Assembly: GCA_011364975.1 (NCBI GenBank)
Contig: RDOE01000027.1
Span: forward strand, 1-39,285
Source of the DNA: Promethearchaeota archaeon
Lineage (GTDB): Archaea > Asgardarchaeota > Lokiarchaeia > Sigyniarchaeales > SOKP01
DNA length: 39,285 nt
Reading direction: 5' to 3'
The first letter of the stretch is position 1. Each line of letters starts with the position of its first letter. This document shows, in pieces, positions 11,934-26,721 of the stretch. The notes below the pieces were generated by a model that was not told the DNA's origin, did no database searches, and was given only the letters and a program-made list of their open reading frames with translations. A program made the translations under genes and the position numbers.

Positions 11934-12037
11934 GGGAGAGCAAATTCCTCATTACGAGGTATCTCTCCAATGGCTTAGCCTGGTATAGCGCACGGCTGAT
12001 AACCGTGAGGTCGGGGGTTCGAAGCCCCCCTTTCCCA
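11934..12037 (+). tRNA. tRNA-Ile(GAU) with a 30-nt intron (11941-11970) between nucleotides 7 and 8
   Basis: Exon 1 GGGAGAG pairs with CTTTCCC (12030-12036), discriminator A. D arm GCTT-AGCCTGGTA-TAGC; anticodon arm CACGG-CTGATAA-CCGTG (GAT 11998-12000); T arm GGGGG-TTCGAAG-CCCCC. Confidence 0.85.
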
Positions 12038-22169: not shown

Positions 22170-22471
22170 TCTTTATTTCCCTTAGATACTAATCTTATAA
22201 ACAATAAAAATTATCTATTTTAATTTTTAGTAATTTGATAATAGAATTAGTGCTATATTTAAGAAAGCTAAGAATAAGTTAATAATATCCAATAAATTAG
22301 ATTTTATTAAATAATATTTAAAATTATAAAAAAAATCTTTAAAATACAATCAATAAAAAAACCAAAAGATAGAAAAAATAAAGAAATAAAAACAATCATT
22401 TGTATATTAATAATGTTTTGATTTATTGAAATTAGAATTATCAAATTAATCTTTTCAGAAGGTGAATTTTA

Positions 22472-22876
22472 ATAGAATTCGGAAGTGATTTAGGAATTGG
22501 TCCCGAGGAAATAGATAAGATTAGTCCTCAAATAACATTCATTACGTCCAATGCTGATATAGAGGCTATAGCGTTAGTGAGTATTGAAGGTTATCAAATC
22601 GCATTTACAGCATTACCCCAGTATCAAGTTGATGGGGATCAATTCTGTGGATTAGCAAGTGCATTATTGATGACGGGGAGTTCTACTATAAAAACGCTCT
22701 TTCAAGAGGAATTAAGTGAAATTATCGTAAGAGCTGAAAATGGATATATTGTAATAAGCAATGCGGGACGATTAGTAATCGTTTGTGCAGGAACTATAAT
22801 AGATACCATGATGAAAACAGTTACAGTAATGAGAGCTGCAGCAAAAAATTTAGCAAAAATATTCGAACCTAAATAG
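22472..22876 (+). CDS. Roadblock/LC7 (MglB-like) domain protein; probable non-canonical ATA start at 22472 (ORF track starts at GTG 22577)
   Basis: DIEAIALVSIEG..IA, GLASALL..G, LSEIIVRAENGYIVI..AG..VIV, helix MRAAAKNLAKIF. The frame is open from the TGA at 22463-22465, and an AAGGTGA SD lies 6 nt before the ATA. Confidence 0.85.
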   Translation: MEFGSDLGIGPEEIDKISPQITFITSNADIEAIALVSIEGYQIAFTALPQYQVDGDQFCGLASALLMTGSSTIKTLFQEELSEIIVRAENGYIVISNAGRLVIVCAGTIIDTMMKTVTVMRAAAKNLAKIFEPK

Positions 22877-23359
22877 AATGAAAGGGATTTATCAGAATAT
22901 TTAATCTTAAAATAAGGACGCTTTATAATTTGAAAATACTTCACGAATTAGATTAATTCTCTATATTATTTGCAAGTAATTTTAATTTACAATCCAATTT
23001 TTTCTTAACCCCCCTTTTTCGCTTTAAAGTATGATCTTTTTTATAAATACAGCCTTTTTTAATTATAAAGATCTCTACTTTATCATTTATGGTTAAAAGA
23101 ATACCACTATGAACGATTTCTACATAAATATAGACTTACTCCAAAATTTCTAAGCTATTTCTACTTAAGTTGAAAAGCAAAGAATTCATCCCAATTGAAA
23201 ATATAGGTAAATATTTTGAATTAATTAAAGACTATTAAATGGAAGATTAGCAATTAATAGAGTTAACCGAATTAAATAAGATAGTCTAATTTTTTTCAAT
23301 AATTTTAAATATTTACAAAAATAATCGTATCTAACTAATTAATGATATGATTTAAATAA

Positions 23360-23413
23360 ATGGCTACTCTAAAGATTGTTACTTGGTGTTGGCAGTGGCC
23401 TTGGCGTTCTTAA
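23360..23413 (+). CDS. Putative Trp-rich leader peptide MATLKIVTWCWQWPWRS (trpL-like)
   Basis: ATG GCT ACT CTA AAG ATT GTT ACT TGG TGT TGG CAG TGG CCT TGG CGT TCT TAA: 4 TGG codons, ending 168 nt upstream of trpB2 on the same strand. Confidence 0.8.
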   Translation: MATLKIVTWCWQWPWRS

Positions 23414-23581
23414 TTACGCCCCTTTCATTGGACTAAACCATTAATTTTTCCCTTATTCTCTATACTGTTTTCTTGTATACATATTAGGATTTTCCCTTTC
23501 TTGCATTAATAATTTTGAATTCCAATCTTATAATGACACATTTTTGTATAAAATGTAACTAGAAAAAAAGAGTTTATAAAA
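23403..23581 (+). promoter_or_regulatory. Candidate attenuator region of the trpB2 leader
   Basis: Hairpin GGCGT/ACGCC (23403-23420) spanning the leader stop; pyrimidine-rich tract with TTTTCCCTT twice (23446, 23490); inverted repeat ACATTTT-N5-AAAATGT (23538-23556). Confidence 0.45.
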
Positions 23582-24982
23582 ATGACAGAAAAATTAAACG
23601 CAAGAATATTATTGCAACCAGAAGAAGTACCGAAGGTTTGGGTAAATATTCTACCTGATCTTCCGGTTCCCATGACGCCCTTAATTAATCCTCTTGATGG
23701 TAAACCAGCTCCTCCAGAATTAGCATTTGCGATTTTTCCAAAAGAATGTGTTCTCCAAGACGTTTCTCAGGAACCTACAATAGCGATACCAAAGGATTTA
23801 AGGGAAATCTATGCTACATCTTATCGACCAACCCCTCTTCATCGAGCATATGGATTAGAAAAAGAAATTGGGTTAGAAGGAGATAAAATAAAAATTTTTT
23901 ATAAAAACGAATCAGTTTCTCCTACAGGTTCCCATAAACCCAATACTGCTCTCGCACAAGCATACTATGCTAAAAAAGAAGGTGTAGAAGAACTAATTAC
24001 TGAAACTGGGGCTGGTCAATGGGGTTCAGGTTTAGCTTATGGATGTAACTTATTTAAAATAAGATGCATTGTCTATATGGTTCGCGCTAGTTTTCTTCAA
24101 AAACCAGGAAGAAAAATTTTAATGAAAGCCTATAATGCAGAAGTCCATCCTAGCCCCTCAAATCTTACAGAGGCCGGAAATAGCTTTTATAAAACAAATC
24201 CTCTGCATCCGGGAAGTCTAGGAATTGCAATATCCGAAGCGGTAGAACATAGCCTAAGGAGTAATACTGCGAGATATTCTTTAGGTAGTGTTGTTAATTT
24301 TGTGCTTTTACATCAAACTTTAATCGGTCAAGAAACAAAAATGCAATTAGCTAAAGTTAACGAAACACCTGATATTCTTATTGGTTGTATGGGGGGTGGT
24401 TCAAACTTTGGTGGATTAATCCTCCCCTTTGTTAGAGATAAATTAAACGGTATATTACCAGATCTCGAGATCATTGGGGTTGAGCCGAAAGCCTGTCCTA
24501 GTGTTAGTAAGGGTGAATATAGGTGGGATTACGGCGATTCTGCCAAGAAAGCGCCTATTTTAAAAATGCATACACTTGGTCATACATTTATACCAAGTCC
24601 AATTCATGCTGGTGGTCTAAGATACCATGGAATTGCTCCAATCATCTCTATTTTATGCAATAATAAAATAATGTATCCGGCAATGCATCATCAAACCGAG
24701 ATCCTTGAAGCTGGCATAACTTTTACCAAATCAGAAGGCATTTTACCTGCACCAGAATGCGCTCATGCGATTAAGGAAGCAATAGATCAAGCTTTAAAGG
24801 CAAAGGAAAACAATGAGAAAAAAGTCATTGTATTCAATTTTAGTGGGCATGGATTTTTTGATATTTCTGCATATGAAGAATATATGGCGGGAGATTTAAC
24901 GGATTATGAATTACCAACTGAGGAAATTCTTAAAGCACTTAAATCAACGGACATGCCAGTAATTGATGAAACCCAATTCTAA
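23582..24982 (+). CDS. trpB2: Tryptophan synthase beta chain 2 (TrpB2, stand-alone)
   Basis: W.NILPDLP N-terminus, RPTPL.RA..LE, SPTGSHKPNTA (PLP Lys), TETGAGQWG, HPGSLGIAISEA, GGGSNF, IHAGGLRYHG, FNFSGHG. Confidence 0.95.
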   Translation: MTEKLNARILLQPEEVPKVWVNILPDLPVPMTPLINPLDGKPAPPELAFAIFPKECVLQDVSQEPTIAIPKDLREIYATSYRPTPLHRAYGLEKEIGLEGDKIKIFYKNESVSPTGSHKPNTALAQAYYAKKEGVEELITETGAGQWGSGLAYGCNLFKIRCIVYMVRASFLQKPGRKILMKAYNAEVHPSPSNLTEAGNSFYKTNPLHPGSLGIAISEAVEHSLRSNTARYSLGSVVNFVLLHQTLIGQETKMQLAKVNETPDILIGCMGGGSNFGGLILPFVRDKLNGILPDLEIIGVEPKACPSVSKGEYRWDYGDSAKKAPILKMHTLGHTFIPSPIHAGGLRYHGIAPIISILCNNKIMYPAMHHQTEILEAGITFTKSEGILPAPECAHAIKEAIDQALKAKENNEKKVIVFNFSGHGFFDISAYEEYMAGDLTDYELPTEEILKALKSTDMPVIDETQF

Positions 24983-25073: not shown

Positions 25074-26159
25074 TTGAATATCTTAACGTTTATAATTATA
25101 AGCGTACTGTATAGTTATGGCTTTCTTGCATTATATATCACTTATCAAGCAAAAAAGAAAGGTGAAAAAGGAGCCTTTATAAATAATTTGGCAAATTCGT
25201 TAGTATTAATAGTCAGTATTTCTCTTAATATAATCATAGTAAATTTTCTAAATATTTCAAACCTTTCTCTTATAATTTTCCCATTTGATATCTTCATTGT
25301 TTTGTTTATTATATTTTTTATACCTTTATTCTTCCTTTCAATCTTTCGAGAAAAAAAAAAGATTAAATTAAAAAATGATTCTTGGAGAAAATACTATATA
25401 CCCGTTTTAAAGGAGCTTCCATTTAAGTACGAGATTTATAGAAAAATTACTCATTTATTAGTTTTAAGTATCATCTTTTTTTATTTTACTTTAGGTTTTT
25501 TTGTCCAAAATTTTTTTGTATATGTTCTAGATTCATTACCTGAGTTTATTTCAGATTTATTTTATTCTCTCTATAACATTGAATCAGATAAGATGATTTT
25601 TACTCAATACTTAGTTGTATCTTTAGTAAGTATCGCATTAATTGGTCTTTTAACAGCAGATTTTGTAAGAATTTTAAAACCTGAGTTTTATCCTTTAAAA
25701 CCAGTGAATTTAATACTGAGACCAAAGGAATTAAGGATGAGATTAGGCCCTCATATATCTATGGGAATTGGTTGCTTTTCAATTATTATACTATTTGGAC
25801 TTTTCCAGCCAATTGGACCATTAATTATATGTGTGTCTATGAGTATGGCTATATTTAGTGATGTATCATCAAATTTAATAGGACGAAAATTTGGAATGAA
25901 GAAGATAAGAAATACTAACAAAACTTACGAAGGATTATTCACTGGCATAATAGTAGCTTTTTTTTCTGGATATCTCTCATTAGTAATAATCAATCCAATT
26001 ATTTCTATCAGTCCTCTTAGTTTCGTAGTAATTCCAATTTTGGGGGCATTGATTATCGGCTTTATAGATTATCTCAATTTAGAAATAGATGATAATTTAT
26101 TATATAATTTCGTTGTAACTTTAATTTTGTTTTTTATTTCTGTAATTTTTCAGTTTTAA
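25074..26159 (+). CDS. CTP-dependent polyprenol/diacylglycerol kinase family membrane protein (SEC59/DGK1/VTE5-like)
   Basis: EIYRKITHL, LRPKE, FSDVSSNLIGRKFG, NKTYEG, IDDNL; multiple TM segments. Confidence 0.85.
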   Translation: MNILTFIIISVLYSYGFLALYITYQAKKKGEKGAFINNLANSLVLIVSISLNIIIVNFLNISNLSLIIFPFDIFIVLFIIFFIPLFFLSIFREKKKIKLKNDSWRKYYIPVLKELPFKYEIYRKITHLLVLSIIFFYFTLGFFVQNFFVYVLDSLPEFISDLFYSLYNIESDKMIFTQYLVVSLVSIALIGLLTADFVRILKPEFYPLKPVNLILRPKELRMRLGPHISMGIGCFSIIILFGLFQPIGPLIICVSMSMAIFSDVSSNLIGRKFGMKKIRNTNKTYEGLFTGIIVAFFSGYLSLVIINPIISISPLSFVVIPILGALIIGFIDYLNLEIDDNLLYNFVVTLILFFISVIFQF

Positions 26160-26217: not shown

Positions 26218-26721
26218 ATGTTAGAAGAAAAATTAAAAATTGATAAAATTAAAAAAGGCACAGTTATCGATCATATTGATGCTGGGTATGCGCTAACTAT
26301 TCTCAATCTAACAGGACTTGATGAATCCCCAAATTTAATGACAATAGGGGTAAATGTTTCCTCAAAAAAATATAAAAAGAAGGATATCATAAAGATAGAA
26401 GGGGTATTTCTTGATGAAATTCAAATGCAACAAATTTCCATTTTATCGCCAAATGCAACAATCTCTTTAATAGAAGAGTATAAGGTAATGGATAAAATCA
26501 AAGTTAAGCTACCGAAAAAAATAGAAGGATTGATTTTATGTCAGAATAATACTTGCATTTCCAATTCAGAAGAACCAATAGATTCTGAATTTTCTGTATT
26601 AGAAGAGAAACCTTTAAAAATACAATGCATATATTGTAATCGGATTTATAAATTAGATGAGATAGTATTCAGTTCACGAGAAAAAATAGAAAAAAGGGTA
26701 AGACAATTAATTCAATTATAA
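26218..26721 (+). CDS. pyrI: Aspartate carbamoyltransferase regulatory chain
   Basis: IKKGTVIDHI, G.NV.S.K..KKDIIKIE, SPNATI, Zn site C.N..CISN...CIYC. Confidence 0.95.
   Translation: MLEEKLKIDKIKKGTVIDHIDAGYALTILNLTGLDESPNLMTIGVNVSSKKYKKKDIIKIEGVFLDEIQMQQISILSPNATISLIEEYKVMDKIKVKLPKKIEGLILCQNNTCISNSEEPIDSEFSVLEEKPLKIQCIYCNRIYKLDEIVFSSREKIEKRVRQLIQL

Follow-up and report, generated by a model that had tools for sequence, protein, structure and literature searches.

The whole contig RDOE01000027.1 (39,285 nt; assembly GCA_011364975.1) of a Promethearchaeota archaeon, here called the window, carries on its + strand the gene trpB2 (23582-24982). This gene encodes a stand-alone TrpB-like, pyridoxal phosphate-dependent enzyme of 466 amino acids and is the presumed regulatory target of a small open reading frame (ORF) in front of it that is rich in codons for L-tryptophan (Trp). 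Read directly on the + strand, this leader ORF (23360-23413) begins with an ATG at 23360, comprises 17 sense codons and ends with a TAA at 23411-23413; its product would be MATLKIVTWCWQWPWRS. TGG codons stand at positions 9, 11, 13 and 15 (23384-86, 23390-92, 23396-98, and 23402-04), four of them within the last nine sense codons, and 168 nt separate the end of the leader ORF from the start of trpB2 on the same strand. The surrounding 1.4 kb lack long ORFs, except for a frame of 99 amino acids resembling Roadblock/LC7 proteins (22577-22876), and the GC content rises to 0.40-0.48 over 23350-23439, as compared with 0.13-0.25 in the flanking intergenic DNA. A first-pass annotation, made from the letters of the window, had claimed just such a Trp-rich ORF in a G-rich patch of AT-rich intergenic DNA, 168 nt ahead of a co-directional trpB2 gene; direct reading of the sequence, the base composition, the measured gap and the TrpB2 family scores given below agree with it on each point.

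Only 4 of the 10,910 intergenic small ORFs in the genome of the window (G000; 3.74 Mb, 30.6% GC, 99% complete) encode at least three Trp residues within eight, and only the leader ORF encodes four. Of the remaining three, two are out-of-frame readings within real genes (one short and GTPase-like, the other HdrA-like). The third (C93), found upstream of an ORF judged to be esterase-like from its translation, without a family search, has its three Trp residues spaced within a hydrophobic stretch at the N-terminus and does not follow the W-x-W pattern. A small ORF with a W-x-W-x-W pattern was present within 650 nt upstream of a single one of the 2202 genes of at least 200 amino acids. A chance origin of the Trp-rich leader ORF is excluded; it is the sole real Trp-rich intergenic small ORF in this genome. 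ARAGORN and Rfam scans of the window found no tRNA at its position. The top candidates for leaders responding to other amino acids in the same genome (poly-Cys, poly-Met and others) precede genes for an FAD oxidoreductase, an ABC ATPase, a TldD-like fragment and HSP20; none of them is located in front of a biosynthetic gene.

The trpB2 product scores 628 bits against the NCBIfam model NF009057 (cut-off 366) and 584 bits against TIGR01415 (cut-off 519), and only 144 bits against TIGR00263, the model for canonical TrpB (cut-off 392). It is encoded by the only TrpB-like gene of the genome. TrpB2 has been described as an indole-salvaging Trp synthase that makes Trp from indole. Searches of this genome, which is 99% complete, detected neither TrpA nor indole-3-glycerol-phosphate synthase (IGPS) nor anthranilate synthase, so that TrpB2 would represent the only route of the organism to Trp.

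We compared the DNA in front of trpB2 across the Promethearchaeota (Asgard) phylum, to which the whole comparison is confined. An orthologue of TrpB2 is encoded by 36 of 41 relatives, by 136 of the 161 class genomes and by 172 of the 251 genomes sampled from the phylum. In 109 trpB2 upstream regions we searched positions -450 to -1 for a frame with a W-x-W motif no more than seven codons from its stop. Such an ORF was found on the sense strand at 19 of 25 loci of the genus, 34 of 44 loci from the rest of the class and 12 of 40 loci from other classes; the same search on the antisense strand gave 0 of 25, 0 of 44 and 2 of 40, and block-shuffled sequences gave means of 0.45, 0.73 and 0.99, respectively. 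These counts, together with the variation of the peptides outside their Trp residues, bear out the expectation of the first-pass annotation that Trp-rich upstream ORFs would recur before trpB2 orthologues. Even the six genus loci that lacked a W-x-W motif have, at the aligned position, an ORF with two Trp codons (C-W-R-G-L-W is one example). Among 76 named near relatives, which are the same species set as that of the trpB2 survey and hence not an independent sample, 58 possess the leader and none has one on the antisense strand, and the leader stop lies 115-193 nt before trpB2. Two complete genomes assembled as single contigs, G038 and G049 of the sister family, are among the carriers of the leader. 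These relatives are metagenome-assembled genomes (MAGs) of Promethearchaeota/Promethearchaeia, that is, Asgard archaea, so that the earlier guess of an Asgard-like host was right. Typical leader peptides read MVTENFDFCWQWPWRS, MATDKNSFWRWQWPWRF and MATVNNWAWRWQWPWRWR, the last with six Trp residues; those of other classes end in ...FWAWRWLLWP, ...SWHPWRSWRWQ or ...CWRWWHWF.

Two individual upstream regions depart from this pattern. In one (L036, genome G061), the closing helix described below (ATGGTTTTAA ... TTTAACCAT) is kept around an ORF of eight codons that contains no Trp codon. The other (L043, genome G080) is a natural deletion variant that has lost the start and the Trp codons, and retains the TATA box, a hairpin remnant, CATTGG, the H1 3' arm, a T-run and H4/H5/H7; genome G080 also has a trp operon that bears an intact Trp leader (L201). 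A Roadblock/LC7-like gene is the conserved upstream neighbor of the trpB2 leader across the family (L002-L008, L036-L038); in the window the corresponding frame is the one of only 99 amino acids mentioned above, about 480 nt from the leader. A second Trp-rich small ORF near -727 in four loci (L002, L003, L006, L008) was discarded as an out-of-frame overlap with the 5' end of this upstream gene. Two contigs with an archaeal trpB2 locus (L128, L153; 76-77% identity) are titled as bacterial MAGs (Nanopelagicaceae and candidate division WOR-3), and other contigs with the locus are titled Thor-, Odin-, Hermod- or Hodarchaeota; such mismatched titles are probably binning or labelling errors.

Within the leader, it is the reading frame that is conserved while the peptide sequence varies. 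When the 42 family leaders are aligned, the start codon and the second Trp codon are 30, 33, 36 or 45 nt apart in 41 of them; the adjacent non-coding spacer of the same 42 leaders comes in eight lengths from 34 to 41 nt, with counts of 6, 13 and 23 modulo 3. At the start column, 38 of these leaders have ATG or GTG. Leaders contain two to six Trp codons, the residues between them vary (Q, P, A, R, H, S, L, T), as do the N-termini, and an in-frame stop follows zero to six codons after the last Trp codon even where the leader sequence is otherwise unrelated. A conserved ORF would also be expected if its product were a functional Trp/Arg-rich micropeptide, perhaps a membrane-active one, that is co-expressed with the Trp synthesis genes, and C-termini such as WRWQWPWRWQ do recall Trp/Arg-rich antimicrobial peptides. 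However, only the alternating Trp residues are conserved in these peptides, whose N-termini, inter-Trp residues and length (13 to more than 60 residues) change freely; the most strongly conserved non-Trp residues are explained by RNA helices, export or processing genes are lacking nearby, and the linkage is specific to genes for Trp synthesis. We consequently regard a functional micropeptide as highly improbable.

The strongest new evidence for a link with Trp comes from the sequences of other Trp-biosynthetic units. TrpA is present in 42 of the 161 genomes of the class, and in 19 of the 22 TrpA genomes with enough upstream sequence a Trp-rich small ORF (for example MTISFANHFGWQWPWRWQ and MILNMATVKSSAWRWQWPWR) precedes trpD, which opens an operon of the order trpD-trpC-trpF-trpB-trpA; Pfam searches confirmed the domains of its genes. 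The criterion used for trpD was a loose one, with a background of 4.7% of 2202 genes; one of the 19 leaders (L196) has no in-frame ATG, GTG or TTG start, and the trpD upstream regions of L207, L211 and L222 have no leader ORF. In four of five genomes checked, trpE directly follows the trpD-C-F-B-A operon, and in genome G059, in which trpE stands alone, it possesses a leader of its own, MPNLLVKTGLRTTTWFWVWRWHA, ending 143 nt before the gene. The leader is linked in this way to three kinds of Trp-synthesis units. Leaders of trpB2 and trpD align block for block through the start, TTGGCAGTGGCCTTGGCGTT, a hairpin, a CA-NN-GG motif, the closing arm and TTGAnnTCCAAT...ACAC. Family lineages without a leader at trpB2 (g15, g16, G080, G134) bear one at the trp operon instead, and in two genomes (G072 and G049) a leader is present at either site; the lineages are related and the independent events few, and the pattern is not a statistical test. 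In some of the operons (L198:7449-7691 on the + strand, with equivalents in L199, L213-L215 and L217), an ORF of 80 amino acids without a Pfam family intervenes between the Trp leader and trpD, and the leader then ends about 410-445 nt before trpD.

In the window, a TATA-like box, TTTAAATA (23304-23311, + strand), aligns with a conserved TTTATAAG / TTTTTATA block that lies about 55 nt upstream of the small-ORF ATG at 22 genus loci and 42 family loci. With the usual archaeal spacing between TATA box and start site, transcription of the leader is predicted to begin near 23337. The ORF is enclosed by a helix, H1, whose 5' arm ATGATTTA (23347-23354, + strand), located 5 nt before the start codon, pairs with TAAACCAT (23434-23441). 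This 3' arm forms one block (23426-23441, + strand) with the CA-NN-GG motif at 23426-23431, whose C90/A91 and G94/G95 are invariant in our alignment A1 and which is also present in the leaders of trpD operons and of trpE. A compensatory change from G-C to A-U is seen in H1 in 5 of 22 genus sequences, and an unbiased search for covariation among 42 family leaders ranked H1 first (16 covarying cells, four of four pairs); the minimum free energy (MFE) structure of the window itself places the closing helix at 23337-23344 with 23439-23446. Inside H1, helix HS (23362-23400, + strand) joins the start-codon region GGCTACTC (23362-23369) to the Gln-Trp-Pro codons CAGTGGCC (23393-23400). HS is present in the MFE structures of the window and of its relatives, with 74% of its cells paired and four of eight pairs changed on both sides among the 22 genus sequences; the conservation of M-A/V-T and of Q-W-P in the peptides is due to this pairing.

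The third helix of the domain, hairpin HT (GGCGT / ACGCC; 23403-23420, + strand), pairs the last Trp and Arg codons with sequence after the stop, such that the last Trp codon falls into its 5' arm and the stop TAA (23411-23413) into its loop. It is the only terminator-like site within 22850-23650. Ninety percent of its cells are paired, its compensatory changes include GTGC/GCAC, TTGGC/GCCAA and GCAT/ATGC, and a hairpin containing or abutting the stop codon was seen in all distant lineages inspected. In one family from another class (f12; L096, L104, L107), the leader peptides end in W-x-W-G-P-R-G-P-V, of which GPRGP is encoded by a GGGUCC-NNNN-GGACCC hairpin right after the Trp codons, and this peptide conservation reflects RNA pairing.

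Downstream of the domain lies a U/C-rich tract (23445-23478, + strand) composed of T5 (23445-23449) followed by CCCTTATTCTCTATACTGTTTTCTTG, which we consider a candidate site of premature termination. Windows of 60 nt over 23410-23499 have an AT skew of -0.32 to -0.47 and a GC skew of -0.47 to -0.58, and pyrimidines make up a fraction of 0.71 of the 90 nt that follow the stop in the window, and of about 0.60 in family leaders, as compared with 0.50 +/- 0.07 in intergenic windows of the genome. In the distant leaders L024, L025, L027 and L072, a strong terminator made of a hairpin and a U-run separates the ORF from the gene, and the stop codon falls in or beside the 5' arm of this terminator, an arrangement that fits simple occlusion of the terminator stem. 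The tract is followed, in this order, by H3, H4/H5, H7, a Shine-Dalgarno-like purine patch and trpB2. Hairpin H4/H5 (CATTA...TTG-AATTC-CAA...TAATG; 23504-23535, + strand), with a nearly invariant apical TTGAATTCCAAT, is the only helix returned by RNAalifold for the whole 304-column alignment; 92% of its cells are paired, five of its seven pairs have changed on both sides, and it also occurs in the leaders of trpD operons. H7 (ACATTTT / AAAATGT; 23538-23556, + strand) appears in the MFE structure, with the equivalents CATCA/TGATG and CACATC/GATGTG in relatives, in a region that aligns poorly and in which covariation counts are weak.

Over all helices drawn, 88% of the cells in the 22 genus sequences are paired, and 16 pairs have changed on both sides as compared with 7.9 in shuffled sequences (0 of 500 shuffles); these figures are inflated, because all helices other than H4/H5 were drawn by eye from the same sequences in which they were then counted. 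When the helix partners are slid against each other, pairing falls to 35-52%. The unbiased scan of the 42 family leaders recovered H1, HT, H4 and H5, and did not recover HS. Apart from H5, which has neither kind, each helix with G.U or A.C cells contains more of the G.U kind, at 8:0 in H4 and 72:21 overall. This excess fits pairing as RNA on the + strand, including that of a helix more than 100 nt downstream of the ORF.

We discarded several other candidate pairings. An alternative helix of the Trp codons and CATTGG-CTAA, seen in truncated folds, has two variable bases that are uncompensated. Two further proposals, base pairing between CCAAT in H5 and CATTGG or UUGG, and a mimic of a tRNA anticodon loop, were dropped, neither of them showing covariation beyond a conserved GG:CC. 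The H5 motif was uninformative as a marker for a regulon, its short patterns occurring 32 and 246 times in the genome and its long pattern twice.

Taken as a whole, the sequence evidence makes it likely, in our judgment, that the 17 codons form a true trpL-type leader ORF, which senses charged tRNA-Trp in cis, and it supports the interpretation in terms of Trp control put forward in the first-pass annotation. That transcription termination is the specific output of this sensor we hold more tentatively, at somewhat less than an even chance. From the arrangement of the leader we infer that the ORF is translated, in which direction control runs and at which step it acts, and the following scheme can be envisaged. 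The promoter at the TATA box (23304-23311) would start a leader RNA of about 245 nt, in which the ORF start region, the alternating UGG codons and the stop would all be paired within a compact domain made of H1, HS and HT, and a ribosome would load while the leader is still being made. With plentiful Trp-tRNA, the first ribosome would pass the UGG codons and depart at the stop, the domain would fold, and the folded domain beside the U-rich tract would favor ending or silencing of the transcript at or after the tract. With scarce Trp-tRNA, a ribosome stalled on the UGG codons would occupy one strand of each inner helix, the 3' strand in HS and the 5' strand in HT. Without the support of these two helices, H1 would need to bridge a loop of about 90 nt with the ribosome inside; it would be destabilized, the domain would stay open, and RNA polymerase would continue into trpB2. 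Termination might be intrinsic or might proceed through the U-preferring factor FttA/aCPSF1. The direction in which a stall turns expression on is suggested because the genome lacks another Trp route. In its full form, then, our reading is that ribosome-mediated transcription attenuation operates in Asgard archaea, a Trp leader ORF controlling premature termination before trpB2, trpD-C-F-B-A(-E) and trpE through an RNA architecture of its own, a three-helix domain round the whole ORF, with an origin independent of bacterial trpL; this comprehensive claim seems to us possible, and nearly as likely to be right as to be wrong.

A series of observations weighs against attenuation, some of them set out here and others together with the alternatives that they favor. 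The leader is absent from 9 of 40 further loci of the class and from most loci of other classes, and the small ORF of the window has no evident Shine-Dalgarno sequence. Intrinsic termination in archaea is generally held to be independent of hairpins. The terminator-like features of the window are weak (a 5-bp hairpin followed by CCTTTC and a single T5), and a run of at least five T residues within 90 nt after the stop occurs in 51 of 69 leaders as compared with a background of 0.50, a modest enrichment. As compared with shuffled sequences, the fold of the domain is moderately stable (z = -1.94) and that of the whole leader is no better than chance (z = -0.39). No antiterminator helix was found in the leader.

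In a subgroup of four loci (L002, L003, L006, L008), the middle Trp codon has been lost. Our reading of the MFE structure and of the strands of L002 indicates that its start region can still pair with the changed Trp region; in the other three this pairing is poorer or not clear. RNA pairing may therefore be constrained as well as the Trp codons, and one can ask whether the leader is a structured RNA that works without translation, as a riboswitch, a tRNA-Trp-binding element or a protein-binding site, with UGG being read as RNA and the frame being incidental. The covarying helices would suit such an element, as would the H5 loop, which is nearly invariant in the way that binding sites often are, and the regularity at the nucleotide level by which almost all UGG repeats continue with a C (UGGC, recurring every 6 nt). 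The start codon, however, sits at a conserved column and insertions and deletions come in multiples of three in all leaders but one of the 42, the in-frame stop never lies more than six codons on even in unrelated leaders, and the leaders of trpE and some of those of trpD have little in common beyond alternating Trp codons. At the gathering score, no Rfam family, Trp_leader and T-box included, matched in the window or in six representative leader loci, and at E values up to 10 nothing but a chance match to an internal ribosome entry site was found over 22170-23600. Given also that only two to six triplets are present and that no TRAP protein was found, a translation-independent element strikes us as improbable.

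The second promoter that could lie in front of trpB2 raises another possibility. The 3' strand of H4 is TATA-like (TTATAATG, 23528-23535) and keeps a conserved spacing of about 54 nt to the start codon downstream of it, so that the small ORF and trpB2 might be separate units, a constitutively terminated small transcript ending at the U-rich tract and a trpB2 gene with an independent promoter, without regulation in cis. The transcript data do not contradict this. A metatranscriptome search gave a single library containing the window locus (16% of sampled words), and reads from four runs yielded two short contigs in the trpB2 coding sequence (23796-23958 and 24351-24612); nothing was found on 22500-23795, so that the leader has no reads and none join it to trpB2. 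Yet the TATA-like stretch is the 3' strand of a helix in which G.U outnumbers A.C by 8 to 0, implying that it is transcribed and paired as RNA on the + strand, the stretch from the small ORF through H7 comes and goes as a single module, and this module tracks whichever Trp unit the genome depends on. Two separate transcription units consequently receive little credence from us.

The alternative that shares most with attenuation keeps the same sensor and changes its output: the stalled ribosome might act on translation initiation, processing or mRNA stability of trpB2 through H3, H4/H5 and H7 and through the U/C-rich tract as an anti-Shine-Dalgarno sequence, and not on termination. About 110 nt of conserved, covarying structure lie between the U-rich tract and trpB2 and are superfluous to a plain terminator model. 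Moreover, MFE folds pair the U/C-rich tract with the purine-rich region at the ribosome-binding site, CCUC pairs with GGAGG or GAGG before trpB2 in the compact leaders of other classes, and the ribosome-binding site is predicted to be only about 38% unpaired. Nevertheless, ribosome footprint masks placed on the Trp codons or on the stop left the predicted accessibility of the trpB2 ribosome-binding site (0.38/0.38/0.37 in 36 leaders) and of the start codon (0.56/0.59/0.58) unchanged, and we rejected a translational refolding model on this ground. The compact leaders likewise show no consistent change in accessibility, and no covarying alternative pairing links the small-ORF domain to the downstream hairpins. 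The unaltered accessibility argues against a simple translational switch, and at the same time it leaves the conserved downstream hairpins unexplained. A post-transcriptional output is, all in all, unlikely in our view, although it deserves to be taken seriously.

A few features of the region and of the genome were noted alongside. Between trpB2 and the gene for the regulatory chain of aspartate carbamoyltransferase (26218-26721) lies an ORF of 361 amino acids (25074-26159, + strand) for which no Pfam or NCBIfam family was found even at E values up to 1. At 11969-12032 (+ strand), where ARAGORN made no call, Rfam gives a partial tRNA match (positions 6-65 of the 71 in the model; 41.9 bits), which could represent a fragment of a tRNA or else a tRNA gene that is unusual or interrupted. 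Outside the window, at G000:C145:8050-9692, an HdrA-like ORF follows coding-looking sequence in the same frame that ends ...FPTDDCAI-TGA-ICGPK..., and the TGA in this frame may encode selenocysteine or mark a break.

Amino-acid leader peptides are a textbook form of gene control through coupled transcription and translation, known from bacteria. Like Escherichia coli trpL (Rfam Trp_leader), the Asgard element consists of a small ORF located in the 5' leader of genes for Trp biosynthesis, with Trp codons near the C-terminus and a stop soon after; its regulatory codons and stop lie within RNA helices with a U-rich tract downstream, and the frame is conserved while the peptide is not. It differs from trpL in that its two to six Trp codons alternate (W-x-W-x-W) instead of standing in tandem, in that it has a three-helix domain round the whole ORF and no clear four-segment terminator/antiterminator, and in that the U/C-rich tract is followed by about 110 nt of further conserved hairpins. 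Moreover, its host is an archaeon with archaeal termination machinery, and its target in the genome of the window is the stand-alone TrpB2. Among other bacterial stalling leader ORFs, the published accounts of amino-acid leaders in actinobacteria (PMC1262725) and of poly-Cys leaders in mycobacteria (bioRxiv 10.1101/834739) describe runs of cognate codons in small ORFs that sense amino-acid supply ahead of biosynthetic operons; as far as these accounts go, the systems are bacterial and their architectures are unrelated to that of the Asgard leader.

The Bacillus subtilis trp leader bound by TRAP shares with the Asgard leader the regularly spaced triplet repeats in a trp leader RNA. TRAP requires 9-11 (G/U)AG repeats and the TRAP protein, whereas the Asgard leader has two to six UGG triplets that are in frame inside an ORF, and the TRAP family PF02081 was not found in the 99%-complete genome of the window with a search whose control detects the B. 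subtilis protein. TnaC of E. coli senses free Trp through its nascent peptide and has one critical Trp residue; the multiple Trp codons of the Asgard leader point to sensing of tRNA charging instead. What the two may have in common is that a ribosome arrested near the end of the leader ORF could bar a termination factor (Rho in the case of tnaC) from the adjacent RNA, and by analogy a scheme with FttA/aCPSF1 and the U-rich tract is conceivable, FttA being described as preferring U-rich RNA (PMC13681488). Archaeal control of Trp biosynthesis in response to Trp is otherwise represented by a repressor of a different nature. TrpY represses trp genes in Methanothermobacter and Thermococcus as a DNA-binding protein at the promoter, whereas the Asgard element is an ORF in a structured RNA. 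We found no description of an archaeal Trp leader in the literature searched, which left most subscription journals and supplements outside. According to a statement from 2021, no archaeal attenuation or antitermination was known (PMC8448881), and a commentary from 2025 says of archaeal coupling that direct evidence for it "remains scarce" (PMC13681488).

On the evidence of its sequence, the Asgard leader would thus represent a trpL-like kind of control in a domain of life from which, as far as we could find, it has previously not been reported. It offers a conserved, easily recognized and mutable sequence with which to probe how the ribosome communicates with RNA polymerase or with termination factors in archaea. 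Many such organisms have TrpB2 only, and they appear to raise its level when Trp-tRNA is in short supply, a behavior that fits the salvage of indole from the environment. If our reading is true, transcription and translation are functionally coupled, and termination is regulated as well, in the closest prokaryotic relatives of eukaryotes.

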